From positions 1-53,289 of the forward strand of contig JBFGLM010000033.1 of the NCBI GenBank assembly GCA_041576165.1: a DNA stretch of 53,289 bases. Direction: 5' to 3'. Below the pieces are notes generated by a model. The model was given only the letters and a program-made list of their open reading frames with translations. It was not told the origin of the DNA and ran no database searches. The position numbers were made by a program, and so were the translations under genes. Origin of the DNA: Acidimicrobiia bacterium (lineage in GTDB: Bacteria > Actinomycetota > Acidimicrobiia > Spongiisociales > Spongiisociaceae). Shown here one piece after another: positions 18,152 through 53,289 of the stretch (position 1 is the first letter of the stretch; each line of letters begins with the position of its first letter).

Positions 18152-18152
18152 G

Positions 18153-19601: not shown

Positions 19602-19809
19602 TCTGTCGGCTTCCTCCGGTTTGCTTCCGAAAAAACTCCGCCTACCCGCGGCGAAGCGCTCGGGAGTATAGAGACAAGGCACGCGCCCGCCTAAACAACC
19701 GATCAGGGGTTCATCCGGCCCCGGCTGCGGCCGGCTGCTGCCGCTGGCTACAGCCCGGCGGCGGGCCGATCCAAGCGTGCGAGCTGATGGACGGTACGCT
19801 CTCGGGCGC

Positions 19810-29692: not shown

Positions 29693-29699
29693 TCGGCGA

Positions 29700-32698: not shown

Positions 32699-34605
32699 CA
32701 CAACCCCCTCGCAACAACCCACGCCACCAGCGCCGCCGCGCCGACTGCCAGCAGCGCTCCGTAGGACCGAACGAATCCGGTCTGAATCGGGCGCAGCCAG
32801 GCCCCGACCTGTTTGGTGACGACACCCACGCCGTTGACGAGTCCGTCGACGAGGCTCTGATCGATCGAAGTGGCCAGCCACTCCGAAGCCCGCCGGCCAG
32901 GTGTGACGATCAAGGCCCCGTACACCCGATCAACCCAGTATCCGTTCTCCCAGGCGAACCACGGGCGGCGGAACAGACCCAGGAAGCGGCCGCGCGCCTC
33001 TTCGCTGGCGCGGGCGTACACCAATAGGCCTATCGCAATGCCGACTACCGCCGCCAGGACCGAAATCGCCGCCAGCGACAGCTGCGCGCCGAGGGCCTCG
33101 GGTGGATGAGCCAAAGGGACTCCCTCGAAGGACGGCTCGAGGAAATGCTCCAGTGCGAGGATCCCGGCGGCCGGGGCGTTGAGGAACCCGCCGCCCAGCG
33201 ACAGGATCGCGAGCACCAGCAGCGGCACCGTCATTACATTCGGGGATTCGTGGGGTGTTACCCCTTCGTCCCAGCGGGGTCGACCCAGGAACACCATGGC
33301 GAACTGCCGGGTCATGTAGAACGCGGTGAGCAGGGCCGTGAATATGCCGACCCCCCACAGGATGAACAGCCAGCCGCCCTGTTCGAAGATCGTGGCCAGA
33401 ATCTCGTCTTTCGACCAGAACCCGGCCAGCGGTGGCACTCCGGCGATCGCCAGCGTGGCGATGCCCATGGTGGTGGCGGTGATGGGCATCGACCGGGCCA
33501 GACCGCCCATCTTGGTCATGTCCTGTTCGTCCGCCAGACCATGGATGACCGAGCCGGCTCCCAGGAACAAGAGCGCCTTGAAGAAGGCGTGCGTCATCAG
33601 ATGGAAGACGCCGGCCACATAACCGGCGACACCCACCGCCATGAACATGTAACCGAGCTGGCTGATCGTCGAGTAGGCCAGCACGCGTTTGATGTCGTTC
33701 TGTGCGATGGCGATGGTCGCCGCCAGCAGGGCCGTGATGGCGCCCACGACCGCCACCACCGGGCCGGCGACCTCGGACAGTGCGTAGATCGCGCCCGTGC
33801 GGGCGACCATATAAACGCCGGCCGTGACCATCGTGGCGGCGTGGATGAGAGCCGAGACGGGGGTGGGGCCCTCCATTGCGTCCGGCAGCCACACATGTAG
33901 CGGCACCTGCGCCGACTTTCCGGCCGCGCCCACCAGCAGCAGCAAACCGATGGCCGTGGCGGTGGATGCGCCGAGCACCTCTCCTGGGGCGTGGAGGACC
34001 TCGGTGTAGGAGAAGGTGCCGAACGAAACGAAGATGAGCATCAAGCCCACCATGAAACCGAAGTCGCCGATCCGGTTGACGACGAAGGCCTTCTTCCCAG
34101 CTGAGGCAGCTGCAGGCCGGGTGAACCAGAACGAGATCAGCAGGTACGAGCAAAGGCCCACCAACTCCCATCCGACGAACAGCACGGCAAAGTTGTTCGC
34201 CAAAACCAGCACCAGCATCGAGGCGGCGAACAGGTTGAGATAAGAAAAGAATCTGCCGTAGCGCTCATCCCCGTGCATGTACCCGATGGCGTAGAGATGG
34301 ATGAGGGTGCCCACCCCGGTGACGATCAGCGTCATGAGGGCGGCGAGCGGGTCCCACAGCAATTCGGCTCGCGCCCCCAACGCCGGAATCCAATCGAACA
34401 GATGAACCACCTCGATGGCCTCTTCCGCGTGTTCACCACCCTGGAAGAAGGGAACCGCTGCCGCGAGGGCATAGACAAAGCTGGCGCCGACTGCACCCGA
34501 CGCCAGAAGGCCGGGTAGCGGTTCGGGCAAGCGGTGGCCGACAAAGTGAATGACCACGGCTCCTGCGAGCGGCAACGCAATGATCAGCCACAAATAGTCA
34601 ATCAT
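32698..34605 (-). CDS. nuoL: Complex I subunit L (14-subunit cluster)
   Basis: [49 protein letters not shown]. Confidence 0.95.
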
Positions 34606-34904
34606 CCGCGCAGCTCCGACAGGTCATCAACCGAGGCGGTGCCGCTGGTACGGAAGATCGTGACGATGATGGCCAGGCCAACGGCCACCTCGGCTGCCGC
34701 CACGACCAACACGAAGAAAACGGCCATCTGCCCGTCGAGGCTGCCCAGCTCACGTCCGGCGGCGACAAAGGTGAGGTTGACCGCATTCAGCATAAGCTCG
34801 ACCGACATGAACATGATCAGGGCGTTGTTCCGGAGGAGCAGCCCACCCGCCCCGATCAGGAACAGGATTGCAGCGAGCGACATGTAGAGCTCGACCGCGA
34901 CCAT
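34602..34904 (-). CDS. nuoK: Complex I subunit K (14-subunit cluster)
   Basis: [24 protein letters not shown]. Confidence 0.94.
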
Positions 34905-35491
34905 CAGCCGGTCTCCTCCTCCACGGGTGTGATACGCCGCCGGCGCGGCCGGTAAAAGGCGAGCGAGATAGCACCGACCGATGCAATGATGAGCAACACC
35001 GCGGTGGCTTCGAAGGGGAGGAGCCAACCCCGCGCATCGATTCCGACCGCGATCTCGCTTTCAGTCTCGCCCGAGATCAGGCGGCTGCCGATAGTCTCGA
35101 TCGTGCCGTTGGCCTGCTGGCCGCTTCCCTCGGGAATGACCCAGCTCCACTGATCAGATGCGACGATCACGGCACCGAGCACGAGCACGACCACTGCCGC
35201 AATGGCGGCGGTCTGGCGCTGGAAGGGAAGCCGCTCTCGCATCTGTTCGACCCGGTCGACCCCGATGAACATGATGACGAAGAGGAACAGCGTCATCACG
35301 GCGCCTGCGTACACGATGACCTGAACGGCCGCGACGAAATGGGCAAGGTGGATCACGTAGATCACAGCCAGCGCGAACAGCGTCATCATCAGACCCATCG
35401 CGGCATAGACCGGGTTCTTCGCCAGCACCACGGCCAGCGCCCCGGTGATGGCGGCCGCGGCCATCAGCGCGAAGATGATCGCCTCTACCAT
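34904..35491 (-). CDS. nuoJ: Complex I subunit J (14-subunit cluster)
   Basis: [28 protein letters not shown]. Confidence 0.93.
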
Positions 35492-36159
35492 CAGGCGTCC
35501 TCCCCCGAATCCGGCGTTTCGGGCTCTCCAGGCTCGGCACCCGGCGACTGGCCGCGTTCCGGCGGGCGCACACCAACTCCGGCTGAAGGCGTCCAGGCGA
35601 CAACGCCCTCATACGCGGCGCGGCCTTGGGGGGACGTTGCCCGCATCCACCCGTCCGCCGCCCTGAGCTCCTCGAAGTCGGCGAACTTGTCCTCTGCGAA
35701 CATGTGGTTGGGTGTTCCGTCCGGTTTGACCAGCAGCTCTTCCTTTGTGTAGATCGCGTCCTCACGGTTGGTCGTCGACATCTCGAAGAGATGTGTCATT
35801 GTGATCGCCTCGGTCGGGCAGGCCTCCACGCACAGCCCGCAGAAGATGCAGCGGAGCATGTTGATCTCGTACACGAACCCGTACCGCTCCCCCGGGCTGA
35901 TCGGAGCCTCGGGCGGGTTGTCCTCACCGCGCACGTATATGCAGCGGGCCGGGCAGGCGCCGGCACAGAGCTCACAGCCGATGCATTTTTCCATTCCATC
36001 CGGATAGCGGTTGAGCACATGGCGTCCGTGGAACCGCTGCGGCTTGACGCGCATCTCCTTGGGATAGCGGGTCGTCACCTCGCCTTTACCGAAGAACGTT
36101 CGGAGGAATTGGCGACCGGTGACCTTGGCGCCCTTCAGAAAATCGCCGACAACTCCCAT
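35491..36159 (-). CDS. nuoI: Complex I subunit I (14-subunit cluster)
   Basis: [12 protein letters not shown] and [12 protein letters not shown]; RFHGRH. Confidence 0.95.
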
Positions 36160-37263
36160 CTACACCCCACCTTCCCACGGCAGCCCGAACTGGCGGATCG
36201 CAACCACCAGACCCGAGAGGACCAGCCAGGCGAGGGCGGCCGGGATCATTCGTTTCCAGCCGAGCGTCATCAGCTGGTCGTAGCGCAGCCGCGGCAATGT
36301 GCCCCGCAGCCACACGTAGAAGAACAGCAGCACGATGACCTTGAGGAAGAACCACACAGTGGGCAACAGGCCTGAGATGAACGCCGGGAGCACGCCGTCC
36401 CAGGTGGGTCCGTTCCAGCCGCCGAGGAACAGCGTGACGGCCAGGGCAGACATCGTGAAGATGTTGATGTATTCGGCCAGGAAGAAGAGGGCGAAGCGCA
36501 GACCCGAGTACTCCGTGTGGAATCCGCCGACGATCTCCTGCTCGGCCTCCACCAGGTCGAAAGGCGCCCGATTGGTCTCTGCGACCGCGGCGATGAAGAA
36601 CAGCACGAACGAGGGCAGGATCGCCACGGCGTTCCAGCGCGGGAACGCGAAGACGGTCGTGTCCCCCAGTTGGAGGACCCAGTTGCCTGCCTGGGCCGCC
36701 ACGATCTCCGACAGCCGGGCGGAACCGCTGTAGAAGACCACCGGCACCAGCGCCAAGCCCATCGCCGCCTCATACGAGATGGCCTGCGCGGTGGCGCGCA
36801 CCCCGCCCAGAAGCGGATATTTCGACCCCGACGACCAGCCGGCCAGGACCACGGCATAGACCGCAACGGATGACATGGCGAGTACGTACAGGAGACCTAC
36901 GTTCAGGTCCGTCCCCTGCAGCGGGAAGGTGCGTTCTTGCCCTCCCAGAGTGATCGTGAACGGTCGACCGAATGGCACCACCATGAACATTAGGAACGCC
37001 GGGACGGCGGCCAGTATGGGAGCCAGCAGGTACAGCCCGAACTCGACTTTGCGTGGAGTGATCTGTTCCTTGAAGAACAGCTTGAGCCCGTCTGCGAGCG
37101 TTTGCAGGATCCCCCAGGGCCCGGCCCGGTCGGGGCCCACCCGATTCTGCATGTCGGCTACGACCTTGCGCTCGAACCAGATGAGCAGGATGGTGACGAC
37201 CATCAAGAGCACGAACACAACCAGGACCCGGGCCACCACGAGGAGGATGTCCCAACCGTCCAT
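36160..37263 (-). CDS. nuoH: Complex I subunit H (14-subunit cluster)
   Basis: ERKVVADMQNRVGP, AETNRAPFDLVEAEQE, TLPRLRYDQLM. Confidence 0.96.
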   Translation of the reverse strand: MDGWDILLVVARVLVVFVLLMVVTILLIWFERKVVADMQNRVGPDRAGPWGILQTLADGLKLFFKEQITPRKVEFGLYLLAPILAAVPAFLMFMVVPFGRPFTITLGGQERTFPLQGTDLNVGLLYVLAMSSVAVYAVVLAGWSSGSKYPLLGGVRATAQAISYEAAMGLALVPVVFYSGSARLSEIVAAQAGNWVLQLGDTTVFAFPRWNAVAILPSFVLFFIAAVAETNRAPFDLVEAEQEIVGGFHTEYSGLRFALFFLAEYINIFTMSALAVTLFLGGWNGPTWDGVLPAFISGLLPTVWFFLKVIVLLFFYVWLRGTLPRLRYDQLMTLGWKRMIPAALAWLVLSGLVVAIRQFGLPWEGGV

Positions 37264-39698
37264 CAGCCGGTCCCTTCTGCCGGGGCGACCTCACACGCCA
37301 GCGTTGCAGCGACCAACCCGACTCCGGGCTGGTTGAAGGGGACGTACACCGTCCCGTTTACAAGGGTGGCGTCCAAGACCACCGGCAGGCGCACGCCGTT
37401 CACCAACACCGAGGACCCTTCTGTGATGCCAAGGTCGGCCGCGTGTGTCGGATGCAGGTAGGCAGCGGGGCCGGGAGCCAGGTCGTGCAGCGACTGACTG
37501 TTGCGCATCAGCACGCCGTCGTCGTAGAGCGTCCGCGCCAGATGCAACGACACGTCGAGCGAGGCGGCGTCCATCTCCGTTCTGACCGGCACGTACTGCA
37601 GCGGCTGTGACCCAGCGGGGATCGGCACCACCACACCTTCGCGGGCGTCCCAATCAAGCAGCTCCCAGGAGACGCCCCGATACGCGGGGGCCAGGTCGGC
37701 GATCTCCTTGGCTATGCCTTCGGCCGAGTCGAGCCCGACCGGTCGCCCCAGTCGGGTGGCGAGCTCATCGAGCACCGACCAGTCCGCTCGGGCCTGGCCC
37801 GGGCCGGCCACGAGGCGGTTGACCTTCTGCACCCGTCCCTCCACGTTGGTGACGGTGCCCTCCTTTTCGGCAAACCCTTCTGCCGGCAGGATCACGTCGG
37901 CCAGCTCATTCGAGTCGTGGCGGAAAAGATCGAGCGATACGACGAAGTCGGCAGCGCCGAGCCCATCCCGGCCGCAACCGTTGGGGACGTCCCGGACCGG
38001 GTCCGCCCCCACCAGGATCAGTGCCCGGATCTCGCCGGCGACGGCCTTGGTCAGCATCCCCGCGGTGTCGGAGCCGATCCCGGACGGCAGCTCGCCCCAG
38101 GCTTCGGCGATTGCACGGGCACCCTCGGTGTCGGTGATCGATACCCGCCCGGGCAGCAGCGTTGGAGCGACGCCCATGTCGAGCGCTCCATACGTGTTAG
38201 ACCGGTGCACGAGGGGCAGGATGGTCGCCTCGGGCAGCTCCCGGGCGAATGCGGCGACCGACTCGGCGAGCCGTGGATCCTCCGCCAGCCCGGTGCGGCC
38301 GACGATGGCGACGGTCGGCCCCTCATCCAGCGCAGCCCGGGCAGCTGCGTACTCCCCGGTACCGGCTGCAAGGCCGGCCAGGACCGCCGGTCCATCGCCC
38401 GGCTGGTAGAGGATCTTGTGGGCCGCGCGGTCGTCGAGTCCGGTGCGGCGGGGATGGACGACGACCAGCTTGGCTCCCAGCTCCTGGGCTGCGCGCCGCA
38501 CCCGCAGGTACAAGATGGGCGCCTCCTCCTTCAAATCTGCTGCCCAGAGCAGGATCGACTTCGCCGCTTCCAGGTCGTCGATCCTGGCCCGGGGAACGAT
38601 GCCGGCCAGCAGCTGAGGATCTAGCCCATCGTCGAGCTGAGCGTCGAGGTTGTTGCTGCCGATGGCGACCCGCATGAACTTCGACAGTGCGTACGCGTCT
38701 TCGTTGGTGCCGCGAGCCCCGCCGATCGCGCCCACCGCGGCTCCACCGTCCGCCTCGACGATGGCCCCCACGCGGTCGGCCACCAGCTTCATCGCTTCGC
38801 CCCACGAAGCTTCCCGCCAATCCTCACCCTCTCTGATCAGCGGTGTGGTGAGCCGGTTCTCAGAATTGATGAACTCGAACCCGAACCGCTCCTTGTCGGA
38901 TAGCCATCCCTGGTTGGTCGGACCGTTGTCCACGCCCAAGAAGCGCACAACTTCGTTTTGGCTGCTGTGCACGGCGATCCGGCTCCCCTCAGTGTGGTGC
39001 GGACTCGTGCTCTCCACGATCTGTAGATCCCAGGGTCGGGCCCGGAATCGGTAGGGCCTTGCGGTCAGCGCACCGACGGGGCATATCTGGACGGTGTTGC
39101 CGGAGAAGTACGAGTTGAACGGCTCATCCGGAAAGGTCAGCACCTGGGTGTCGTTCCCGCGTTCTTTGAACTCGATCAGCGGGTCGCCGGATATCTCATC
39201 GGAGAACCGGGTGCAGCGGGCGCAGAGGATGCAACGCTCCCGGTCGAGTAGCACGAGTTCGCTGATCGGGATCGGCTTTTCGTAATGGCGCTTTTCTTCC
39301 ACGAAGCGGCTTTCGCCCGGGCCGTATGTCATTGTTTGGTCCTGCAGCGGACACTCCCCACCGCGATCACACACCGGGCAGTCCAGCGGATGGTTGATCA
39401 GCAGGAATTCGAGAACGCCCTCCTGCGCCTTCTTGGCGACCGAGCTCTCAGTGTGCACCACCATCCCATCGCTGACCGGCTGCATGCACGCAGGGATGAG
39501 GGCAGCTCCCCGCGGCCCCTCCACCTCGACCAGGCACATGCGGCACATACCGACCGGGTTCATCCGGGGATGCCAGCAGAACCGAGGGATGTAGGTGCCA
39601 TGGTCTTGAGCGGCTTTGATCAAGAGTTCGCCCGCCGGCACCTCGACGTCGTGCCCATCGATCGTCACTGTGACCAGCTCGGGGGTGGGCTCGCTCAT
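37263..39698 (-). CDS. nuoG: Complex I subunit G
   Basis: N1b (IPRFC, CRMC, PAC), N5 (HPLDCPVC...EC) and N4 (CILCARC...ICP) motifs; molybdopterin-fold C-terminus. Confidence 0.95.
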   Translation of the reverse strand: MSEPTPELVTVTIDGHDVEVPAGELLIKAAQDHGTYIPRFCWHPRMNPVGMCRMCLVEVEGPRGAALIPACMQPVSDGMVVHTESSVAKKAQEGVLEFLLINHPLDCPVCDRGGECPLQDQTMTYGPGESRFVEEKRHYEKPIPISELVLLDRERCILCARCTRFSDEISGDPLIEFKERGNDTQVLTFPDEPFNSYFSGNTVQICPVGALTARPYRFRARPWDLQIVESTSPHHTEGSRIAVHSSQNEVVRFLGVDNGPTNQGWLSDKERFGFEFINSENRLTTPLIREGEDWREASWGEAMKLVADRVGAIVEADGGAAVGAIGGARGTNEDAYALSKFMRVAIGSNNLDAQLDDGLDPQLLAGIVPRARIDDLEAAKSILLWAADLKEEAPILYLRVRRAAQELGAKLVVVHPRRTGLDDRAAHKILYQPGDGPAVLAGLAAGTGEYAAARAALDEGPTVAIVGRTGLAEDPRLAESVAAFARELPEATILPLVHRSNTYGALDMGVAPTLLPGRVSITDTEGARAIAEAWGELPSGIGSDTAGMLTKAVAGEIRALILVGADPVRDVPNGCGRDGLGAADFVVSLDLFRHDSNELADVILPAEGFAEKEGTVTNVEGRVQKVNRLVAGPGQARADWSVLDELATRLGRPVGLDSAEGIAKEIADLAPAYRGVSWELLDWDAREGVVVPIPAGSQPLQYVPVRTEMDAASLDVSLHLARTLYDDGVLMRNSQSLHDLAPGPAAYLHPTHAADLGITEGSSVLVNGVRLPVVLDATLVNGTVYVPFNQPGVGLVAATLACEVAPAEGTG

Positions 39699-41017
39699 GC
39701 CCGACCTCCAATGGTCACCGGGACCGCGTTGGCCTGCGCCACATACGCATCGACCTCGTCCCGGAAATGGGTCAGGAGCGAGGCTACTGCCGACACCGCG
39801 GACGGCCCCAACGGGCAGATAGTCGTCATCTTCGGCGGCCAGGTAACGCCGGGCGATATGTTGTCGGAGATGTCCCACAACACGTCGGCATCGATCGCAC
39901 GCCCGTCGCCGTCCATGATCCGGCGCAATATCTGGTCGAGCCAGGTGGTGCCCTCTCGACAAGGCGTGCATTGCCCGCACGACTCGTGGGCGAAGAAACG
40001 CACCAGGCGCTCGGCGGCGGCCACCATGTCGGTCGTGTGGTCCATCACGATCACCGCACCTGATCCCACCATGGAGCCGAGCGAATCAATGACAGCTTTG
40101 GTGCATTCTGTGTCGAGGTGCTGATCCGGCACGAACCACGGGGCCGAGGCCCCGCCCGGGACCCACGCCTTCAGCTCGTTGTCATCCCTGATACCACCCG
40201 CAACGCCGTAGATGAGCTCCCGCCAGGTGATCCCTTCGACTATCTCGTAGTTGCCCGGGTTCTTGACGTGTCCCGAGATAGAGCACATCCTGCGCCCCGG
40301 CGAATCTTCCGGCCCGATGGCGGCGTAGGCCGGTCCGCCGTGTTCGATGATCCAGGGCAGGTTGGCCAGCGTCTCGACGTTGTTGACGATCGTCGGCAGC
40401 ATGTACAGACCCTTGGCGGCCGGAAAGAACGGAGGCTTGAGTCTGGGTTCGCCCCGCTTTCCCTCGAGACTGTTCAGTAGGGCGGTTTCCTCACCGCAGA
40501 TGTATGCCCCCGCACCGAGATGCACCGTCACGTCCAGGTCGTAGTCGGTGCCGAAGATGCCCCGGCCGAGATAGCCGGCCGCGTACGCCTCGTCGATTGC
40601 CGCCTGCATGCGGCGGGCCGGCTTGGGGTATTCGCCCCGGATGTAGACGAAGGCGTGATGCACATCACCGGCCTTGGAAGCGATGATCATGCCTTCCAGC
40701 AGCTGATGCGGGTCGCGTTCCAGGAGCTGGCGGTCCTTGAACGTGCCCGGCTCGGACTCATCACCGTTCACAACCAGATAGGCGGGCTTGGCTGGTGCGA
40801 GAAACCCCCACTTGACCCCGGTAGGGAATCCTGCGCCACCGCGGCCACGCAGGTTGGAGGCCTTGACCTCCTCGGTGATCGCCTCGGGTTCCATCTCGAC
40901 AATGGCCCTGCGGGCAGACACGTATCCGCCCGTCTCCTCATAGGTAGCGAGTGTGTGCGAGGTCTGGGGATGGGCGTCCATCCGCGCAGTGAGGATGACC
41001 GGAGGGGCGTCGCTCAT
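39695..41017 (-). CDS. nuoF: Complex I subunit F (NADH/FMN binding)
   Basis: GRGGAGFPTG, DESEPGTFKD, GAGAYICGEETAL, ESCGQCTPCREG. Confidence 0.96.
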   Translation of the reverse strand: MSDAPPVILTARMDAHPQTSHTLATYEETGGYVSARRAIVEMEPEAITEEVKASNLRGRGGAGFPTGVKWGFLAPAKPAYLVVNGDESEPGTFKDRQLLERDPHQLLEGMIIASKAGDVHHAFVYIRGEYPKPARRMQAAIDEAYAAGYLGRGIFGTDYDLDVTVHLGAGAYICGEETALLNSLEGKRGEPRLKPPFFPAAKGLYMLPTIVNNVETLANLPWIIEHGGPAYAAIGPEDSPGRRMCSISGHVKNPGNYEIVEGITWRELIYGVAGGIRDDNELKAWVPGGASAPWFVPDQHLDTECTKAVIDSLGSMVGSGAVIVMDHTTDMVAAAERLVRFFAHESCGQCTPCREGTTWLDQILRRIMDGDGRAIDADVLWDISDNISPGVTWPPKMTTICPLGPSAVSAVASLLTHFRDEVDAYVAQANAVPVTIGGRA

Positions 41018-41640
41018 TCCGCAACAGCTCCTACTCCACCCACGTTGCCATACGGCGGAAAAGCGGGGTGAGGCCCGATAGCACCCTCAGCCTCTGGAAT
41101 AGCCCAGTCGAAGGATTTGGCACCCCCGAACAGGGCCTGGAGCTCGTCTGTGTTCACGACGTCCGGTCGAGCCGTGCGCAGCCAGGCGATGAGTTCGCGG
41201 GCTTGATCCGGGGTGAGCCCCTCGAGCATCTCGTAGTTGACCTGCGCGGCGGGGGCGCCGCCACACGCGCCGATGCATTCCACGTGTTCGACGGTTATCA
41301 GCCCGTCGTCGTCCGTGACACCGGCGGGCGCTCCGACCGCTTCCTCGGCCGCATGCAGCACGTCATCGGCGCCGAGCAACCAGCAAGAGATGGACGTGCA
41401 TACCGACACGAGGTACCGGCCAACCGGCCGCCGTTTGTACATGGTGTAGAAGCTGGCGACGGCCTGGACCTGGGCGGCGGTGGTGCCGGTCAGCTCCGCC
41501 ACCCGCTTCATACCGGCATCGCTGAGGTGGCCCTCTTCGCTCATCGCGATGTAGAGGAGCGGCATCATCGCCGAACGCTTGTCCGGATAGCGGGAGATGA
41601 GCGCACCCGCTCGTTGCTCTGCGTCAGCCGACCACGTCAC
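41014..41640 (-). CDS. nuoE: Complex I subunit E
   Basis: VASFYTMY, CTSISC, CIGACGGAP (N1a); GTG start placed after GGAG. Confidence 0.93.
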   Translation of the reverse strand: MTWSADAEQRAGALISRYPDKRSAMMPLLYIAMSEEGHLSDAGMKRVAELTGTTAAQVQAVASFYTMYKRRPVGRYLVSVCTSISCWLLGADDVLHAAEEAVGAPAGVTDDDGLITVEHVECIGACGGAPAAQVNYEMLEGLTPDQARELIAWLRTARPDVVNTDELQALFGGAKSFDWAIPEAEGAIGPHPAFPPYGNVGGVGAVAE

Positions 41641-41732
41641 TCGGGGCTCCAATTCCCGGGTGGCACCGTTACTTTCGGCGAACAACGGGCGCACGCGTCA
41701 GCACTGGATGACCGAGAGTTGGGTGCTCTCAT
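41637..41732 (-). other. Palindromic spacer containing a 31-aa micro-ORF coupled to nuoD and nuoE
   Basis: ATG overlaps the nuoD TGA and its TGA overlaps the nuoE GTG; outer stem CCAACTCTCGG/CCGGGAATTGG. Confidence 0.45.
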
Positions 41733-43081
41733 CTATCTACATCTCCCATGACCGGATCGATCGACGCAATGGTGGCAATCGTGTCGGCCACGAGCGAATC
41801 GGCCATCATGATGGGCAATGCCTGCAGGTTGGCGAAGGACGGTGCCCGGATGTGCATCCGTTGGGGCCGGGCGCTGCCGTCCGAGACGATGTAGCAGCCG
41901 AGCTCCCCACGCGGCGACTCGACGGCTACATAGACCTCGCCCTCGGGCACCTTGAACCCTTCCGTGTAGATCTTGAAATGGTGGATCAGAGCTTCCATGG
42001 ACTCGTCGATCCGCTGGCGGGGGGGTGGAGTCACTTTGCGGTCGTCCGTCCGGGTGTCGCCGGCGGGCATGGAGTTGGCAACCTGCTCGACGATTCGCAG
42101 CGACTGCACGATCTCTTCGATCCGCATCCGGTACCGGTCGTATACGTCGCCGTTGGTCCCGGTCGGCACATCGAATTCGTACTGCTCGATGCCCGAATAT
42201 GGCTGGGACTTGCGCAGGTCCCAGTCGTACCCGGTCGAGCGTAGGATCGGCCCGGTGATCCCGTACGCGAGACATTCCTCCGTCGTGATGACCCCGACTC
42301 CCCGGGTACGGGCCTCCCAGATCGGGTTGTGTTCGAGAAGATCGTCGTAGTCATCCAGGGCCGCCGGCATGACCTCGAGGATCTGCGCGACGTCGTCTTC
42401 CCAGCCGTCGGGCAGGTCGGCCGCCACGCCCCCGGGCCGTATGTAGTTGTGGTTCATGCGGAGCCCGGTGGTCTTTTCGAAGAAGGCGAGAATCATCTCG
42501 CGCTCTCTGAAGCCGTAGATCATCATCGACAACGCGCCGATGTCCATGCCGTTGGTGGCTGTAGCCACGAGGTGGCTGGAGATCCGGTTCAGCTCGGTCA
42601 TGAGCACCCGGATTGCGTGGGCGCGAGGCGGCAGATCCACTCCCAGCAGCTTCTCCACGGCCAGCGAGAAGACGAGCTCGTTGTTGAACGGCGACAGGTA
42701 GTCCATCCTGGTGACATTGGTCGGGCCCTGCAGGTACGTCAGCTCCTCGCCCGTCTTTTCCATGCCGGTGTGGAGGTAACCGATGATCGGCTTCACCCGT
42801 CTGACGAGCTCACCTTCGAGTTCCAGGTTGAGGCGGAGCACACCATGCGTCGAGGGGTGCTGGGGGCCCATGTTGATGCGCATCCGCTCGTCGCTATGCG
42901 TTTCATCGTCGATGACGTAGTCGTCGGTGATGCGGGTCCCGACCTGTTCGATCGACCGCTGATCCGTTTCCTCCGGCAGCATCTCCTGGGCGCCTTCATC
43001 GGTGCCGGCGACAGCCCAGTCGGGCTCCTCCGTCCCCGTCACCCACACTTCCCGCTGCACGGTTTTGGTGTCTTCAGCCAT
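41729..43081 (-). CDS. nuoD: Complex I subunit D (14-subunit cluster)
   Basis: NMGPQHPSTHGVL, GYLHTGMEK, TRMDY, ESPRGELG, DPVMGDVDR. Confidence 0.96.
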   Translation of the reverse strand: MAEDTKTVQREVWVTGTEEPDWAVAGTDEGAQEMLPEETDQRSIEQVGTRITDDYVIDDETHSDERMRINMGPQHPSTHGVLRLNLELEGELVRRVKPIIGYLHTGMEKTGEELTYLQGPTNVTRMDYLSPFNNELVFSLAVEKLLGVDLPPRAHAIRVLMTELNRISSHLVATATNGMDIGALSMMIYGFREREMILAFFEKTTGLRMNHNYIRPGGVAADLPDGWEDDVAQILEVMPAALDDYDDLLEHNPIWEARTRGVGVITTEECLAYGITGPILRSTGYDWDLRKSQPYSGIEQYEFDVPTGTNGDVYDRYRMRIEEIVQSLRIVEQVANSMPAGDTRTDDRKVTPPPRQRIDESMEALIHHFKIYTEGFKVPEGEVYVAVESPRGELGCYIVSDGSARPQRMHIRAPSFANLQALPIMMADSLVADTIATIASIDPVMGDVDR

Positions 43082-43638
43082 CACACCACCTTGTGTGATT
43101 CTTTGAACTGCACCGGAACCTGCCCGGTGGCGAAGTCTTTCCGGAGTGGGTAGCCATCCCAGTCGTCCGGCATGAGGATCCGGGTCAGGTCGGGGTGGCC
43201 GTCAAAGGAGATCCCGAACATGTCGTACACCTCCCGTTCGAAGAAGTTCGTTCCCGGATACACGGGCACCAGGGAAGGCACCTCGGGATCCTCGGCACCG
43301 ACAGGACAGAGCAGTCGAAGGCGGAGATTGTGCGTATGCGACAGAAGGCAAGCGACCACGTCAAAGCGGATCCGGCGGCCGCGATGGTGATCGACTGCCG
43401 TCACGTCGACACATACTTCAAAGCCTGCCCGCTTGGCGGCTTCGGCGAATGTCCGAAAGTCTGCGGGCGCCACGGTGGCAGTGTCCTGGTCGCGGGACAG
43501 ATGCCATTCAACTCCGGGGAAATCTTCGAATAGCGACCTGAGCACCGGGTGGTCGGGCAGCTCCCGGGCCGGGGGTTCACCAACCTCGCTGTCGAGGCTG
43601 GTTTCGGCGACAGATTCGGGAGTTGGTTTCTCACTCAT
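43081..43638 (-). CDS. nuoC: Complex I subunit C (14-subunit cluster)
   Basis: DVTAVD, EREVYDMFGISFDGHPDLTRILMP, YPLRKDF. Confidence 0.94.
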   Translation of the reverse strand: MSEKPTPESVAETSLDSEVGEPPARELPDHPVLRSLFEDFPGVEWHLSRDQDTATVAPADFRTFAEAAKRAGFEVCVDVTAVDHHRGRRIRFDVVACLLSHTHNLRLRLLCPVGAEDPEVPSLVPVYPGTNFFEREVYDMFGISFDGHPDLTRILMPDDWDGYPLRKDFATGQVPVQFKESHKVV

Positions 43639-44108
43639 CACCGCGCCAGCTCCCCCGTCATGATCTTGTCCTGCAGGGTGAGGATTCCATGCATCAGAGA
43701 TTGCGGTCCGGGCGGGCATCCCGGAACGTAGATGTCGACGGGCACGACCTGGTCCACCCCCTGTACCAACGCATAGTTGTTGAACATCCCACCGGTCGAG
43801 GCGCACGCGCCCATCGATATCACCCATTTCGGATCGGCCATCTGGTCGTACACCTGGCGCAGGACCGGCGCCATCTTCTGACTCACCCGGCCGGCCACGA
43901 CCATCAGGTCGGCCTGGCGGGGCGAGGCTCGGAAGACCTCCATTCCGAATCGCGCCAGATCGTGATGCGCGGCGCCGGTCGCGATCATCTCGATTGCGCA
44001 ACACGCAAGCCCGAAGGTGGCAGGCCACATCGACTGGGTTTGGGCCCAGCGGACTGCGGCTCCCAACGTGCTGGTCAGCAGGTTGGGGGGCGTCGAGAGC
44101 CGCGCCAT
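43638..44108 (-). CDS. nuoB: Complex I subunit B (14-subunit cluster)
   Basis: [33 protein letters not shown]. Confidence 0.96.
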
Positions 44109-44524
44109 CAGGCAGCTTCCTCCTGCACCTCGAGTTCGCGTCGGTAGCGAGCGCGCCGAGGGACGTTCCAGTCCAAGGCGCCCCGCTTCCAGACGTACCC
44201 CAACGTCTCAATGATCAGAAGGGTGAAAATGCCAACGGATGCGACCCCGAGCCAGCCGAGCTCCTGGAACTGCGAGGCCCAGGCAAACAGGAAGATGATT
44301 TCGACGTCGAAGATCACGAAGAGGATCGCCACCAGGTAGAACTTCACCGGGAACCGGTTGATCGGTTCCTCCTCCGTAACGATCCCACATTCGTAGGGGG
44401 CCAGCTTCTCCGGCGTGGGCCGTTTGTAGGAGAGGAGGTTCGAGGCCAGGAGCGAAACGCCGGCAAAGAGTCCTGCGAGGACCAGCATCACCAGTACCGG
44501 CAGATAGTCAGCAAGCTCCAACAC
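44108..44524 (-). CDS. nuoA: Complex I subunit A (14-subunit cluster)
   Basis: [29 protein letters not shown]. Confidence 0.95.
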
Positions 44525-44779
44525 AGCTCCCTTCTGTGGCGCAGGTTAGAAAGCTCGATCCCGGAGTGACAAAACGCCCTACGTGGCTTGCGCCAAGCGG
44601 CTCGAATCGGACGCTGCCGGTTCGCACCGCAGTGGTTCCGCCACCGGTCGGAGCGGTCCCAGCTCGGTGCTCATCGCCCTGCGATCCCGAAAAGTCGATG
44701 GAATGACTGATCCCGGAGCGGCGTTCCGTGGGGCCCGGCAGATCTGGGCCCTCGCAGCACCACTATGCTCGCGTGTCCC

Positions 44780-45427
44780 GTGAAGAACCCGTCAGAAATC
44801 CCCAAGGCAACGGTCGAACGCCTGCCGCGCTATTTGCGCTCTTTGGAGGCGCTGTCGCCGAGACGCTCGACCATCTCCTCGACAGAACTCGCCAGGCTCA
44901 GCAATGTCAACGCCGCCAAGGTGCGCAAGGATCTCTCGTATATGGGAACCTACGGCGTCCGCGGCGTGGGCTACGACGCCGAACTCTTGCGCTTTCAGAT
45001 ACGTCGCGAGCTGGGGCTCACCCGCGATTGGGACGTGGCAATCGTGGGCGTCGGGAATCTCGGGTCCGCGCTCGCCAACTACGGCGGCTTCGTGAGCCGG
45101 GGATTCTCCATCGTGGGTGTCTATGACGCCGATCCCGCCAAGGTGGGCATGAAGGTCGACGGCCGGACGGTGCGTGACATCAGCACACTTGCGTCCGACA
45201 CTCGGACCAGGGATATCTCGATTGGCATCATCACCACCCCGGCTGAGGTCGCGCAGGAGGTGGCCACACTGCTCGTCGAGTGCGGCGTCCGGTCGATCCT
45301 CAACTTTGCGCCGACGGAGCTGTTGGTGCCCGAGGGCGTCCAGGTGCGCCAGGTCGATCTGGCCACCGAACTCCAGATCCTGTCGTTCTACATGAGCGGC
45401 GGAAGGCCCGAAGCCCTCGAGGCCTGA
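44780..45427 (+). CDS. rex: Redox-sensing (NADH/NAD+) transcriptional repressor Rex
   Basis: IPKATVERLPRY, VRKDLSYMG.YG.RGVGY, VGVGNLG Rossmann motif, ILNFAP. Confidence 0.96.
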   Translation: MKNPSEIPKATVERLPRYLRSLEALSPRRSTISSTELARLSNVNAAKVRKDLSYMGTYGVRGVGYDAELLRFQIRRELGLTRDWDVAIVGVGNLGSALANYGGFVSRGFSIVGVYDADPAKVGMKVDGRTVRDISTLASDTRTRDISIGIITTPAEVAQEVATLLVECGVRSILNFAPTELLVPEGVQVRQVDLATELQILSFYMSGGRPEALEA

Positions 45428-47455: not shown

Positions 47456-48360
47456 TTACTCCTCCACTGCCGCCTCGAGCGCGATGCAGGAAGGTCCCTG
47501 CGGGTACGGTACGGTGCTGATCAGGGCACGGGCGGTTTGGATGATCGAGCCCGTCTTGATGATCAGGTTTCCTCCGCTGTCCTCAACGACGAAGCGATCC
47601 AGGTTGCGGGGTGCGGGTCCAGCTCGATACTCGCCCACGTAGTTGTATTTCGAACCGTGGCAGGGGCATTCGAATCCCTGCGATGTGTCGCACCATGGCA
47701 CCCGGCAGCCAAGATGAACGCAGCGCTGGAAGAGCGCAGTGAGCCCGGCCGTAACCACGTCTGTGCCCTCGAACTGTGAGGTGTCTACGAGGGACTCATC
47801 GAACGGCACGACGTACGCACGGGCCTCGGGCAGGAAAAGCGGCAGGATCGACCCGTCGGGACGGGTGATCTGGTTGCGTATCTCCGAAATCGGTCCGGCG
47901 TCGATGTCCGACCCAAATCCGCCGGACAGCCTGGGCCACAAGAACGCCAGTGAAGTGATGCCGAACAAGGCCATGTACCCGCCGAATGTGGCCAGCAGCG
48001 CCCGGGTGAAGAACTGGCGCCGGGTGACACCGGCCTCCTCCGACGACAGTTCCTCCACCCGCTGCACCTCCTGGACCACTGCGGTGGTTGGCGGAGGAGC
48101 TTCCACCTCGACCTCGGGAGCGGGCGGCGGGCCCTCGACGACGGAGACCTCCTCGGCGGGGGCTTCTTCGACCGCGGCCACGGTGCCCACGGCCACGGGC
48201 ACTTTCAACTCCGACTGGTCGGACCGGGCGGCCTCGCGCGGGACCCGGCTGCGCCAGGGTTCGGATCTACCGGACGAGCGCCGGTAGGCAATGGCAAAGG
48301 CCCCAGCGACGGCCAGAACGGCCAGGGCCACGAGCGAGATGACCAAGATCTGTGTAGTCG

Positions 48361-48364
<4 letters not shown>
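47456..48364 (-). CDS. petC: Rieske 2Fe-2S subunit of a quinol:cytochrome c oxidoreductase
   Basis: CVHLGC and CPCHGS boxes, GPAPRNL, internal twin-arginine motif TRRQFF followed by a TM helix. Confidence 0.92.
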
Positions 48365-49389
<1,025 letters not shown>

Positions 49390-49398
49390 GTTTCGTCC

Positions 49399-50175
49399 CT
49401 AGAGCGGCCCGGAGATGCCGCCGTCCTTTCGAACTCGCCAAAAGTGCACGGCCATGAAGATAACGATCACAAACGGCAGGAACAGCACATGGAGGACGTA
49501 GAACCGCAGGAGCGTGTTCCCGGTCACCTCCACCCCGCCCAGCAACGCGAATTTCACCTGATTGCCGAACACCGGGGTGAATCCGGCCATGTTGGTGCCG
49601 ACGGTCACGGCCCACAACGCCAGCTGGTCCCATGGCAGCAGGTAACCGGTGAAGGAGAGCAGCAAAGTCAGGAGTAGCAGAACGACGCCGATGACCCAGT
49701 TGAACTCGCGGGGCGGCTTGTACGCCCCGTGATAGAACACACGGGACATGTGCAGGAACACGGTCAACACCATCAGGTGGGCGCCCCAGCGGTGCATGTT
49801 CCTCACTAGCGATCCAAAAGCCACTGAGGTGGACAGGGCTTCTGTATCGACGTACGCCTGGGGCGCGGCCGGCGTGTAGTAGAACATCAGGAAGATGCCC
49901 GTGATGGTCAACAGGATGAACAGGAAGAAACTCAGGCCACCCAGACACAACGTGTAGGACAGCCGGACGCCGTGCCGCTTCACCTTCACCGGGTGCAGGT
50001 GATACAGCACGTTGTTCATGATCACATATGACCGGTTCCGGGGACTGTCCGAATACGCCTTCTTGAACGGCGATCCGGGTCGGAAGATGCTCTCCCAAAA
50101 CGGTGAAGCACGAAAGCGTTCGCCGAGCTCTGCTGCCCGCTCCCTCAGTTGCAGTCCGCCATTGCCGTTTGCCAC
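49399..50175 (-). CDS. petB: Cytochrome b6-type N-terminal subunit
   Basis: CLGG haem-ci motif, MHRW..FLH and LH-x14-H haem ligands, [10 protein letters not shown]; ends GISGPL as in cyt b6. Confidence 0.93.
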
Positions 50176-50187: not shown

Positions 50188-50643
50188 TCAGAACCGCATG
50201 CCGTAGGCGTATCCGTTCTTGAAATCGCGAGCCCCCGTGTCGACTTCCCACGGAGCCTGTTCGAGCAGACCCAGATCCATCGCCTGCTCGGCCAAAGACC
50301 CCTCGAACTTCCCGAGGGTGATCACGTTCGTCGGACAGCGATCTACGCACAGGGCACACCGGGTGCACTCGTCTTCGTCCACCACGAAAAACCCGAAGTT
50401 GTCGGCCTGCTCGCCCGGGTTGGCGACGTTCACCGCTTCGTCGATGGCGTCAAGCGACAGATAGTGGATGCACTTCCAGGGACAGATGTCGACGCAGCCT
50501 TCGCAGAGGATGCACTCGGCCTGGTTGATGTGCAGGAACTGTTTGGGCTTGACCTGGGACTGAACGTAGTCGGTGTCAACTGCCGCCAGCTGGTAGTCGT
50601 CGCGGAACGGGGGCGTCTCGAACCAGACCTCGGAGCGGGCCAT
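50188..50643 (-). CDS. 2[4Fe-4S] dicluster ferredoxin
   Basis: CILCEGCVDICP and CTRCALCVDRCP; acidic; no signal peptide. Confidence 0.92.
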   Translation of the reverse strand: MARSEVWFETPPFRDDYQLAAVDTDYVQSQVKPKQFLHINQAECILCEGCVDICPWKCIHYLSLDAIDEAVNVANPGEQADNFGFFVVDEDECTRCALCVDRCPTNVITLGKFEGSLAEQAMDLGLLEQAPWEVDTGARDFKNGYAYGMRF

Positions 50644-51281
50644 CAGCTGGTCCCTTTCACGAGGGGTCGGCCGTACGGTGACACGGCTTCGACCTCGGCT
50701 GTCTCATCCGGGAGCGGCTTGCCCCAGTCCTGGATCTTGTAGGCGAAGATGATCATCAAGGTGAGGATGCCCATGTTGTAGTTGATGGATACGAAGTCCT
50801 TGACGAATGCGAGGCTGATGGTGATGTCGTTGTTCAGCACGAGCCACGGGGGGACGGTGAAGAGGTCGGTCTGCTCGGTCCACTCGAGCGGACCCTGCGT
50901 CAGGTTCAACCACTCTGAGGGAAGGGTGCCCAGGTACAGGACCAGCTGCAAAAACACGATGAACGCCGCGAAGGTTGCCCGGGCCCACGTCATCTTCCGA
51001 TCGAGGAGGAAGGCGATAGCGGCGCCGGCGATCATGATCTGGCTCGCCGTGAACGCGATGATTTGCCCGATCGTCACCGAGAACCATCCGCGGGGGATCC
51101 AACCGAAATAGTCGACCTCGACGGTGGACTCTACGCCATCAACGGTCTCCGTCACCGGGAAGTTCGCGTAGTGAGCGATCAGGATGCCTACCGCGAACGT
51201 CACGAGGCCGATCGCAATCATGCCGAGGCCGAGACCGGTCTTCTGGCTTTGGCTCAGTCCTCGAAGCCTGCGCTGCAGCAT
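50643..51281 (-). CDS. Unknown 4-TM membrane protein, first gene of the Rieske/cyt b operon
   Basis: GGGAG SD; four hydrophobic segments; stop overlaps the ferredoxin ATG. Confidence 0.75.
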   Translation of the reverse strand: MLQRRLRGLSQSQKTGLGLGMIAIGLVTFAVGILIAHYANFPVTETVDGVESTVEVDYFGWIPRGWFSVTIGQIIAFTASQIMIAGAAIAFLLDRKMTWARATFAAFIVFLQLVLYLGTLPSEWLNLTQGPLEWTEQTDLFTVPPWLVLNNDITISLAFVKDFVSINYNMGILTLMIIFAYKIQDWGKPLPDETAEVEAVSPYGRPLVKGTS

Positions 51282-51543
51282 GTCGGCTTGCGTTCTCCCT
51301 GTTACTGCCGTTTGATGACCCTACCCACCAAACCCGCGATACGCTTGTTTCGGTCCTGCCCGGCCGGTTCAGCGGCGAGGCGCACCGCCATTGTTAGCAG
51401 AAACAAGCCGCTTCCCCGAAACCCATCGCGATATTCTCCAGCCGGTTCCGTCGCAGGTGAATTGACCGCCGTTTGGCATCCCCACCCGCTTTGACGGCCG
51501 TATGCCGATCCGGCGAGAATGCGGCCGCCTTGATGTCGGGTTG

Positions 51544-51585
51544 AGCCCACAAAGTCCGGTAGGCTCGCCCGGACTTCGGTGGGCT
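51544..51585. repeat. Inverted repeat/hairpin in the divergent promoter region
   Basis: AGCCCAC-a-AAGTCCGG ... CCGGACTT-cg-GTGGGCT. Confidence 0.6.
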
Positions 51586-51609
51586 TTGCCGTCGCGAATG
51601 GCGGGGGCG

Positions 51610-51674
51610 CCGGATGACGAACCCGGATAACTAACCCGGATAACGAACCCGGATAACGAACCCGGATAACGAAC
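51610..51674. repeat. 13-bp tandem repeat (CGAACCCGGATAA), 4 full copies plus partial flanks
   Basis: Units at 51618, 51631 (one mismatch), 51644 and 51657; no spacers. Confidence 0.9.
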
Positions 51675-51710
51675 ACAGACCGAACACCACGGACGGAAAC
51701 AGGAGTCGGG

Positions 51711-53144
51711 TTGGCTGCAGCCACCAACAGCACTGCGGGGCTCACAGGCCTGGCCGCACGAACCCCCGATTCAGCAGCCCGGCGTCACTTGATCGCCGCA
51801 GTGGTCTTCCTAGCCGCAGGCGCGGGCTTCGTCGTGCTCGCCAGCATCAAGCTCGGCTTCCCCGGAGTCTTCGACCAGACCGCGTTCGCCGGCTACGCCC
51901 GGTTGCGCCCGATCGGGTTCAATCTGCTCGTGCACGGGTTCGGGTTCCTGTTCATCACCTCGGTTTCCTATTTCCTCCTGCCTCGTTTGACCGGGCGCCG
52001 CCTGCCCTTCGAGTGGGTCGCGAATCTGAACCTGTGGGCCGCAGTCGGCGTTGTGGCAGTGGGAGCTGGGCTGATCGCCATCGGCTGGAACTCAGGCAAT
52101 GACTTGGCCGAATTCGGCATAATCCTGGACATCCTGTTTTTTGTGGTGACCCTGGTCCCGGCCGCCATCGTGACCATTGCCGTCATCGACCGCCGCGAGA
52201 ACACCATTTATCCGTCACTCGCATTCCTGGCGGCCGCCCAACTGATCTATCCATGGCTGTACCTCATCGGAAACCTCTGGCGCTTGGAAGGGGCCGGAAC
52301 TCAGCTGCAAAACACCTTTATGGTGGGCGGGATTCTCACCGTGGCGCTGCCGGCCGCCGCAATCGCGGGCGTCTACTACGTGGTACCCAAAGCCAGCAAT
52401 CAGCCGCTCTACAGCCGCTCGCTGGCGATGGCGGGGTTCTGGACGCTCCTGTTCACCGGCCTGGCCAGCGGGCAGGCCCGATTCGTGGCCGGTCCCGCTG
52501 CCGATTGGGTGGACACGGTTGGAGCGGTGCTCTCGCTCGGGATCCTGGTGGCTGCGCTGACGGTCGCCGCCAACACGTGGTACACGCTGTCCGGTGCCTG
52601 GGATCGGGTGACGCCCTCGGCGGCATTACGACTCACGGTGACCGGCGTCGCCGCCCATGTCGTCGTGTCCGCTCTCTTTGCCGTGCAGGGCTTTCGGGCG
52701 GTGGCCGCGATCGTAGGGCTGACCGTCTGGTACGACACGCTGACCATCGCCACGTTGCTGGGAAGCATCGCGTTGCTGGCGGCCGGCTTCACCTACTACG
52801 CCTACCCCCGCATGGCCGGGCGGGCCGTCTACTCCGACTTCGTGGCCAACCGCCACCTCAAGTTGACCGTGTGGGGCATCGGTCTGGCCACCGCCATCGG
52901 AGTGATGACAAGCGTTGCCATGGGCATGACCTGGACATCGAATGTGATCAGCGGCGCAGCAGACAACTTCGGCGAGGGGTTTGTCTCGTCCATGGGCAAC
53001 ATCCGCACGCTGCTCAAGATCAACATCCTGCCGCTCCTGGCCGGAGCGCTCGGGACGGTCGTGTTCGCGATGAACTTCTACCGCACGATCACGTCGGGGC
53101 GCGTGACCACATCGGAGGTACTGACGGAGATCCCCGATGAGTGA
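51711..53144 (+). CDS. cbb3-type oxidase subunit I (CcoN) homologue lacking the metal-ligand histidines
   Basis: CcoN landmarks YARLRP, AE...DIL, YYVVPK...PLYS..L...FW, DW, TLSGAW; about 12 TM; intact ORF with AGGAG SD and TTG start. Confidence 0.82.
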   Translation: MAAATNSTAGLTGLAARTPDSAARRHLIAAVVFLAAGAGFVVLASIKLGFPGVFDQTAFAGYARLRPIGFNLLVHGFGFLFITSVSYFLLPRLTGRRLPFEWVANLNLWAAVGVVAVGAGLIAIGWNSGNDLAEFGIILDILFFVVTLVPAAIVTIAVIDRRENTIYPSLAFLAAAQLIYPWLYLIGNLWRLEGAGTQLQNTFMVGGILTVALPAAAIAGVYYVVPKASNQPLYSRSLAMAGFWTLLFTGLASGQARFVAGPAADWVDTVGAVLSLGILVAALTVAANTWYTLSGAWDRVTPSAALRLTVTGVAAHVVVSALFAVQGFRAVAAIVGLTVWYDTLTIATLLGSIALLAAGFTYYAYPRMAGRAVYSDFVANRHLKLTVWGIGLATAIGVMTSVAMGMTWTSNVISGAADNFGEGFVSSMGNIRTLLKINILPLLAGALGTVVFAMNFYRTITSGRVTTSEVLTEIPDE

Positions 53145-53289
53145 GCTCCTGGCGGCCGCCGCCCAGAAACTCGGTGCGCCCGAAGAGCTCGTCGAGCGCT
53201 CGGCCCGCGCCCGGGCTGAGGCCCAGGGGGTCGATGTCGACACCATCCTGTCCGCCTGGGCCGGCGGAGAAGCCGCCCCGGCCCCCGCA
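53137..53289 (+). CDS. Partial ORF coupled to the CcoN-like gene (runs off the window edge)
   Basis: Manual translation MSELLAAAAQKLGAPEELVERSARARAEAQGVDVDTILSAWAGGEAAPAPA; 8-bp overlap with the upstream gene. Confidence 0.7.
   Translation, partial: MSELLAAAAQKLGAPEELVERSARARAEAQGVDVDTILSAWAGGEAAPAPA

Follow-up and report, generated by a model that had tools for sequence, protein, structure and literature searches.

In the accessible text of a 2024 survey of the haem–copper oxidases (HCOs; PMC11214002), the three histidines that bind the active-site metal are fully conserved in all HCO families except gNOR, where one is changed. The same text describes new families without the active-site tyrosine, presents gNOR as the first case in which one metal histidine has been replaced, and records ligand changes one at a time: an Asp in place of His in gNOR, and a low-spin haem ligated by His/Met or His/Lys. 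We describe here a protein from the class Acidimicrobiia in which all six metal-ligand histidines and the tyrosine are missing. Its gene lies at the end of contig JBFGLM010000033.1 (assembly GCA_041576165.1), whose full length of 53,289 nucleotides is the window analysed here, and its product resembles CcoN, subunit I of the cbb3-type oxidases. We call it pseudo-CcoN.

A ligand-less CcoN family was not described in any text returned by our full-text literature search, which did not cover supplementary tables; a Ferrigenium preprint that it brought up proved unrelated. The accessible portion of a report on an Ilumatobacter strain (PMC4122944) records a split cytochrome b and does not mention a protein of the pseudo-CcoN type. 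A paper on metagenome-assembled genomes (MAGs) that mentions Acidimicrobiia (PMC8357290) assigns, in its accessible portion, cbb3-type oxidases to several MAGs. All of the named members that we found in public records are labelled "cbb3-type cytochrome c oxidase subunit I" or bear a closely similar name.

The contig belongs to a 5.1-Mb assembly that is 96.5% complete with 7.5% contamination; the contig itself is coherent despite that contamination, carrying two complex I (nuo) operons, a Rex regulator and a bc operon. The pseudo-CcoN open reading frame (ORF) begins with TTG at 51711, ends with TGA at 53142–53144, encodes 477 residues and has no internal stops. Its N-terminus (M/L-A-A-A-T/N-S...) is common to the query and its closest orthologues in the genome search. 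Contigs from other public sequencing runs carry the ORF without an insertion or deletion and with at most one base difference. Two of these (X1 and X2) come from one study, and the source sample could be among them; two further contigs (X5 and X6), each from another study, cover the gene partially. Because these contigs agree with the ORF, we rejected an assembly artefact; contigs of other runs also extend past the end of the window at 53289. The original prediction, made from the sequence of the window, had described an intact frame without a frameshift, a good Shine–Dalgarno sequence and coupling to the next ORF. The first two points are confirmed, the Shine–Dalgarno-like AGGAG lying 5 nt from the TTG. 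The coupling also stands, with a correction to its geometry: the next gene does not start after the stop codon but at an ATG at 53137, so that the two genes overlap by 8 nt (ATGAGTGA).

Sequence comparison places pseudo-CcoN with the cbb3 oxidases. Residues 23–411 match Pfam COX1 (PF00115) at 94 bits (E 1.2e-26; gathering score 34.8), and the top NCBIfam model was TIGR00780, the ccoN equivalog, at 135.7 bits, below its cut-off of 583.15. When chains of the Protein Data Bank (PDB) were searched with phmmer, cbb3 CcoN chains ranked first (9g6b_A, E 1.6e-22; 3mk7_A, E 4.1e-22), and the alignment to P. stutzeri CcoN (3mk7_A) ran end to end, from residue 22 to residue 464. That alignment, in 3mk7_A numbering, supplied the ligand correspondences. 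At the bis-histidine site of the low-spin haem, H60 is replaced by G69 (RLRPLH to RLRPIG) and H347 by I346; the proximal histidine of the high-spin haem, H345, is replaced by L344 (both in WTIGHVH, here WYDTLTI), and its column holds Leu, Thr, Val, Ile or Ala in the 71-member subclade defined below. Among the three CuB/FeB histidines, H207 falls in a gap between G206 and G207 (WWYGHN to TFMVG-G), while H257 and H258 correspond to A256 and R257 (GPHH to GQAR). Y251, the cross-linking tyrosine of helix VII, is G250; this column contains Ala, Gly or Trp in the query clade and Tyr in 29 of 30 canonical CcoN sequences. The column mapping is valid because those 30 sequences, placed on the same profile, read H-H-Y-H-H-H-H at the ligand columns, with His in 30/30 at each CuB column. 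Four histidines are present in pseudo-CcoN (26, 75, 316 and 383, located by eye), none of them in a ligand column. Thus, every motif replacement that had been proposed against canonical CcoN motifs was recovered in the alignment, as was the placement of the four histidines elsewhere; the COX1 and CcoN comparisons put no canonical histidine in place.

Structural modelling gave a similar picture. The AlphaFold2 model, computed with a family alignment of 30 sequences, had a pLDDT of 87.0, a pTM of 0.88 and fourteen helices of at least four residues. Compared with 48,161 PDB representatives in VIA-align, it matched cbb3 CcoN 3mk7_A with a Z score of 46.5 (rmsd 2.2 Å, 448/466 residues, 24% identity), NorB 4xyd_A with 41.3, and subunits I of the A-type, B-type and qNOR enzymes with 28–34. 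Ten HCO chains lay at Z 28–46.5; the top non-HCO row scored 8.6. The superposition on a cbb3 structure thus agrees with the fold that had been anticipated, and on this model pseudo-CcoN has the HCO fold and belongs to the C-family branch.

How does such a protein compare with its described relatives? It shares with CcoN (3mk7_A) the twelve-helix HCO fold, the motifs RLRP, YYxVPK and FW, and an invariant Trp. Unlike CcoN, it lacks the six histidines and the cross-linking tyrosine, and conservation of 90% or more across the 30 canonical sequences is lost in the query clade at positions that include the equivalents of E122, T215, Y317 and H337; we take E122 to be a Ca ligand in CcoN. The nitric oxide reductases (NORs) have the same fold (qNOR chains, Z 28) but retain all haem ligands and the three metal histidines, whereas pseudo-CcoN loses all of these and its cytochrome partner, described below, keeps its CXXCH motif. 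The accessible text of PMC11214002 states that subunits I and II are naturally fused in qNOR and that its haem c motif has been lost, a precedent in this branch for fusion and cofactor loss. It also describes subunit II of the quinol oxidases bo3 and gNOR as a structural part that kept its fold and lost the CuA site. In those cases an accessory subunit lost its metal and the enzyme is catalytic; here, it is the catalytic subunit that has been emptied. We conclude that pseudo-CcoN is a pseudo-enzyme derivative of a C-family HCO.

The absence of every catalytic residue, together with a score far under the ccoN equivalog cut-off, might also mark a decaying pseudogene, the lineage-specific wreck of a cbb3 operon. 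However, protein searches found a pseudo-CcoN match in 40 of 41 related genomes and in 24/24 of the same family (genomes G028 and G039 are counted in the 41-genome tally only); the named relatives are Acidimicrobiia MAGs, including Candidatus Spongiisocius, and a locus search with the protein of one relative returned six named MAG loci. Forty-one of the 42 matches listed in the relatives had no stops. Thirty of 31 distinct orthologues had no histidine at the six ligand columns of the alignment; L038, a fused form, has a single one, at the H257 column, and orthologue L026 has no histidine in the entire protein. Across the class, the family was found in 66 of 151 sampled genomes (E ≤ 1e-10), and it is kept in 32 of 35 genomes of one family whose genomes measure ~1 Mb. 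The ligand histidines were absent from all twelve further loci of the class that we read.

Selection on the gene was gauged by the ratio of nonsynonymous to synonymous substitution rates (dN/dS, Nei–Gojobori), which was 0.09–0.28 in the 25 closest pairs of pseudo-CcoN genes. In seven genome pairs, the ratio was 0.13–0.26 for pseudo-CcoN and 0.15–0.30 and 0.12–0.31 for the CcoO-like and CcoP-like genes that follow it; for the divergent bc operon (Table 1) it was 0.01–0.08 for cytochrome b6, 0–0.12 for the ferredoxin and 0.07–0.15 for the membrane protein mem212. Purifying selection acts on the pseudo-CcoN/CcoO-like/CcoP-like module, though less tightly than on the catalytic subunits of bc. With an ORF that is intact across an order and beyond, retention in small genomes and a confident model, decay is exceedingly improbable, and we rejected it on the grounds of selection and conservation. 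The original judgement that the gene is maintained holds: close orthologues share the loss of the ligands and are nevertheless intact.

The ligand loss characterizes a large clade. In a FastTree phylogeny of 201 sequences, the query clade had 107 members (support 0.948), of which 104 had no histidine at the six columns and three had one stray histidine; within it, 71 sequences form an unfused group and 36 a largely fused one. The remaining half of the tree mixes the 30 canonical sequences with further degenerate lineages. Because its sampling was biased to the query profile and it was rooted at the midpoint, the tree does not fix the number of independent losses. When 1.84 billion representatives were searched with the profile, 3,073 clusters passed E ≤ 1e-3 and 534 passed E ≤ 1e-30. 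Among the 150 best representatives, 75 had no histidine with all six columns covered, 28 had all six and are canonical, 26 had one to five, and 21 had a gap at a column (17 of these without histidine in the covered columns). In a sample of the phylum, 31 of 301 genomes matched (E ≤ 1e-20; genome G258 is counted in the phylum tallies only). Nine loci of other classes comprised four without ligand histidines, one with a single histidine, one intermediate (L060) and three canonical cbb3 genes.

Several degenerate forms outside the query clade were seen along the way. In the half of the tree that holds the canonical sequences, a nested group of 21 (support 0.973) includes a Verrucomicrobiales-named protein. 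The P0149 cluster, with 20 members of which one bears a Verrucomicrobiales name, marks a second ligand-degenerate lineage, outside Actinomycetota and nested among canonical cbb3 sequences; its annotation, too, is that of cbb3 subunit I. In L060 (G184:C5, ORF 5779–7239, minus strand), only the H60 and H347 columns are still histidine. P0153, P0155, P0160, P0168 and others are likewise intermediates, several of which retain haem histidines with some or all of the CuB histidines and the tyrosine lost. Their sequences suggest either stepwise ligand loss or other non-oxidase roles in the C-family branch.

In the relatives, the two genes that follow pseudo-CcoN encode a FixO/CcoO-like monohaem cytochrome c (FixO/CcoO match at E 4.7e-13, one CXXCH) and then a CcoP-like monohaem cytochrome c (one CXXCH); both score below the equivalog cut-offs. 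This N-O-P gene order of the relatives resembles that of the cbb3 operon. Canonical CcoP has two haem motifs, in contrast to the one found here, and the arrangement differs further from cbb3 in its fixed place beside a Rieske/cytochrome b6 operon. In the query's own genome, only 51 codons of the CcoO-like gene are present, the remainder and the CcoP-like gene being outside the assembly; tblastn with the CcoO-like and CcoP-like proteins of relatives as queries matched at 53137–53259. Six of the twelve further class loci encode pseudo-CcoN with a CXXCH-bearing C-terminal extension (631–699 aa). In L047, the only case scored, the best match of the extension among the queries was the CcoO-like protein. 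From their sequences, we read these extensions as probable fusions to the CcoO-like cytochrome, in the order N then O; if so, pseudo-CcoN and the CcoO-like protein act as one unit.

Two COX1-family genes were found in the genome: pseudo-CcoN and subunit I of an A-type caa3 oxidase. The latter's operon, in which subunit II carries CXXCH, encodes the genome's one canonical HCO. FixS/CcoS and FixH/CcoH were not found in this 96.5%-complete genome; CcoG and CcoI were not searched. One of the roles first proposed for the protein, as partner of an active CcoN, was abandoned on this evidence, as the genome is without a canonical CcoN.

What has taken the place of the binuclear centre? In the 71-member subclade, the H258 column is Arg in 45/71 and, two residues ahead of the old H345 position, Glu or Asp stands in 62/71, with the acidic partner present in all 45 Arg cases (R257 and D342 in the query); canonical CcoN has His and Ile/Val, respectively, in the two columns. 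In the fused subclade the pair is shifted (Arg 18/36, Glu/Asp 25/36). We read the pattern as a probable salt bridge in place of the binuclear centre. The same pair could instead mark a new buried polar site by which the emptied scaffold has become an ion or proton conduit or a transporter, independent of electron transfer; a channel was among the roles first suggested. We regard such a role as improbable: the pair is equally explained as a pocket-filling salt bridge, and the obligatory tie to c-type cytochromes, fusion included, favours electron transfer. In addition, the lack of conservation at the equivalents of T215 and Y317, which we take to be proton-path residues of cbb3, speaks against the old proton path being kept.

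A second possibility at this site is a cryptic redox enzyme, an unrecognised catalytic HCO variant with haems or metal on non-canonical ligands. The single ligand changes of known HCO variants (accessible text of PMC11214002) give it some precedent, and related lineages such as L060 keep a partial ligand set. In the query clade, however, the six columns hold mostly small, aliphatic or non-ligand residues that vary from member to member, no position reaches 75% conservation as His, Met, Cys or Lys, and one orthologue has no histidine at all. With CcoS and CcoH also not found, we consider a hidden catalytic function very unlikely.

The other usual neighbour of pseudo-CcoN is a bc operon on the opposite strand, and the two share the divergent promoter region that had been predicted for them (Table 1). 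Ten of the twelve further class loci, ~1 Mb genomes included, keep the full divergent cluster: mem212, ferredoxin, cytochrome b6, subunit-IV-like protein, Rieske protein and dihaem cytochrome c on one strand, and pseudo-CcoN, CcoO-like and CcoP-like proteins on the other. The cytochrome b6 gene of the window is the sole cytochrome b match in the whole genome. An alignment search for mem212 in the class sample gave full-length strong matches (≥140 bits) in 66 genomes and weak matches, mostly to its C-terminal part (27–74 bits), in 65 others. Cross-tabulated by hand, pseudo-CcoN and long mem212 occurred together in 64 genomes, pseudo-CcoN alone in two, long mem212 alone in two and neither in 83; as related genomes are not independent, these counts describe a pattern and have no statistical standing. 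Three loci were read from two families in which pseudo-CcoN is missing. Each retains the bc operon, with mem212 in a short form, and two of them have a divergent CcoP-like gene; pseudo-CcoN and the CcoO-like gene are absent from all three. So pseudo-CcoN and the CcoO-like protein are accessory to the bc core, and the N-terminal part of mem212 travels with them.

With respect to mem212 itself, no Pfam or NCBIfam match was found, and the atlas search gave only hypothetical proteins of Actinomycetota. Its model (pLDDT 76, pTM 0.57) had a top structural match of Z 7.6, which is noise for helical proteins, and no fold was assigned. PDB entries 7q21 and 9qef, which we take to be the bcc-aa3 supercomplex, appeared in that comparison only as weak rows. 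In the class families without pseudo-CcoN, mem212 is shortened to its C-terminal part; the CcoP-like monohaem cytochrome stands alone divergent to the bc operon in L068 (7918–8895, minus strand) and L069 (7134–8276, minus strand).

A short sequence element recurs among these proteins. It is a cytoplasmic N-terminal motif of ~45 residues (MSDLLAAAAxxLGxPExLVERSAxARAxAxG...AWAGG), followed by a linker rich in Ala, Pro and Glu. It is common to the CcoO-like protein, the CcoP-like protein, more weakly the subunit-IV-like protein, and a 414-residue membrane protein without known family beside the caa3 operon (L040, which is G000:C1, 12120–13364, minus strand). A hidden Markov model (HMM) of the motif identified three ORFs in the query's own genome and two to four proteins in each of five relatives' genomes. 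It scored the extension of the subunit-IV-like protein at E 4.9e-7, and the subunit-IV-like proteins of relatives have the motif as well. Respiratory complexes may share it as a tether or docking tag.

We favour, with moderate confidence, the reading that pseudo-CcoN is not an oxidase but a scaffold without haem or copper, serving as the anchor of c-type cytochromes that function downstream of bc. As predicted from its sequence, the CcoN-fold protein would bind no haem b, haem b3 or CuB; without these it cannot reduce O2 or NO. Purifying selection would keep it as a membrane scaffold. It would anchor the CcoO-like monohaem cytochrome, whose gene is the coupled next gene and whose product appears to be covalently fused to it in many lineages; in the unfused forms, it presumably binds that subunit. 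The CcoO-like and CcoP-like cytochromes would then form an accessory module facing the periplasm, one that may receive electrons from the bc complex, on its Rieske/dihaem-c side, and hand them, most likely, to caa3, the sole catalytic oxidase; both the direction of flow and the partners are those we consider most plausible. A structural role was among those first suggested, and it fits the ccoNOP-like operon, the N-O fusions and the fixed place beside the Rieske/cytochrome b6 operon. Judged by gene order and co-occurrence, it may also be physically attached to the bc complex.

Several observations weigh against this scaffold reading. The query's own ccoNOP-like operon is presumed from that of its relatives. 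The predicted lack of cofactors comes from sequence, and unusual ligands can hold haem. The Arg and Asp/Glu pair at the old binuclear centre could serve a new polar function and not be part of a passive scaffold. Two of the twelve class loci, L043 and L044, have pseudo-CcoN without a bc gene within the 10 kb read, and in other classes of the phylum the gene is not directly beside cytochrome b. Lastly, families without pseudo-CcoN keep the bc operon, so the bc core works without it and its contribution may be subtle.

The last three observations also suit a different assignment, in which pseudo-CcoN is an assembly, stabilising or regulatory factor, or part of a stand-alone membrane cytochrome c complex outside the path from bc to caa3; pseudo-CcoN also changes at several times the rate of the catalytic bc subunits. 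We think this unlikely, if less so than a conduit or a cryptic enzyme. The divergent bc arrangement in ten of twelve class loci, the co-occurrence with long mem212 and the N-terminal motif that links the CcoO-like, CcoP-like and bc subunit-IV-like proteins all stand against it.

A bolder version of the scaffold reading, which we hold only tentatively, is that a whole cbb3 has turned into a non-catalytic module of complex III. The haem-less CcoN would be integral to a Rieske/b6–ferredoxin complex, docked through the long mem212 and the N-terminal motifs; the haems c of the CcoO-like and CcoP-like proteins would hard-wire that complex to caa3, and the Arg–Asp/Glu pair would be functional, in a structural or gating role. 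If true, a pseudo-oxidase would for the first time stand at the core of a respiratory supercomplex, and this supercomplex would extend across much of Acidimicrobiia, genomes of ~1 Mb included.

The nearest described arrangement is the actinobacterial bcc-aa3 supercomplex with its built-in dihaem QcrC. As proposed here, the two would be alike in that membrane-bound c haems permanently wire a Rieske/b complex to an A-type oxidase in place of soluble cytochrome c. They differ in that the present system has another type of cytochrome b (a split b6/subunit IV), an extra ferredoxin and an HCO-fold scaffold without counterpart among the solved supercomplexes.

The features of the window are collected in Table 1.

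Table 1. Coordinates of pseudo-CcoN and surrounding features in the window
Feature	Coordinates	Strand	Remarks
Pseudo-CcoN	51711..53144	+	477 aa; 12-helix HCO fold (model); six metal-ligand His and cross-link Tyr gone
Shine–Dalgarno-like AGGAG	51701..51705	+	5 nt ahead of TTG (sequence reading)
CcoO-like monohaem cytochrome c gene, first 51 codons	53137..53289	+	cut by contig end; cytoplasmic N-terminal motif encoded
Divergent intergenic region, 429 bp	51282..51710	.	13-bp x 5 tandem repeat; one sigma-70-like site
Sigma-70-like site	51491-51520	+	
13-bp tandem repeat, five copies	51610-51674	+	37 nt 5' of pseudo-CcoN start
mem212, 212-aa membrane protein	50643..51281	-	first bc-operon gene; four long helices in model
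2x[4Fe-4S] ferredoxin, 151 aa, weakly NuoI-like	50188..50643	-	within bc operon
Cytochrome b6-type N-terminal half of split cytochrome b	49399..50175	-	PF00033, E 2.4e-47
Subunit-IV-like C-terminal half of cytochrome b	48361..49389	-	PF00032; long N-terminal extension opens with weaker motif copy
Rieske [2Fe-2S] protein	47456..48379	-	PF00355
Dihaem cytochrome c, 487 aa	45986..47449	-	PF13442 and PF00034; L016 orthologue has two CXXCH
Small membrane protein, ~119 aa	45634..45993	-	last bc-operon gene; without known family
Rex-type redox-sensing regulator	44765-45427	+	PF06971 and CoA_binding; between nuo genes and bc operon
Complex I (nuo) set	28184-44524	-	
Complex I (nuo) set	9352-19811	-	

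The ferredoxin of the bc operon was constant in the bc operons of the class members that we read, with or without pseudo-CcoN; such a subunit is unusual in a bc complex, and it hints at a cytoplasmic point of electron entry or exit. Orthologues of the small membrane protein are 117–119 residues long and start with MRELFR. In the intergenic region, the repeated 13-bp unit (CCGGATAACGAAC) gave five matches against 0.01 expected from shuffling; the repeat may be an array of regulator binding sites. One of the two nuo sets is full and includes NuoE/F/G-like subunits, for which the other set gave no matching ORF.

Six histidines are the presumed signature of HCO subunit I, and a large, selected clade that lacks all six together with the tyrosine is an unreported state of the superfamily. 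It offers a clear case of a respiratory enzyme that has become a pseudoenzyme. Genomes annotated with a cbb3 oxidase on the strength of pseudo-CcoN probably do not have that oxidase and, where the annotation is read as a high-affinity oxidase, microaerobic respiration would be over-called in Acidimicrobiia and related Actinomycetota. Pseudo-CcoN also provides a handle on how the unusual complex III of Acidimicrobiia, with its split b6 and ferredoxin subunit, is wired to an oxidase.

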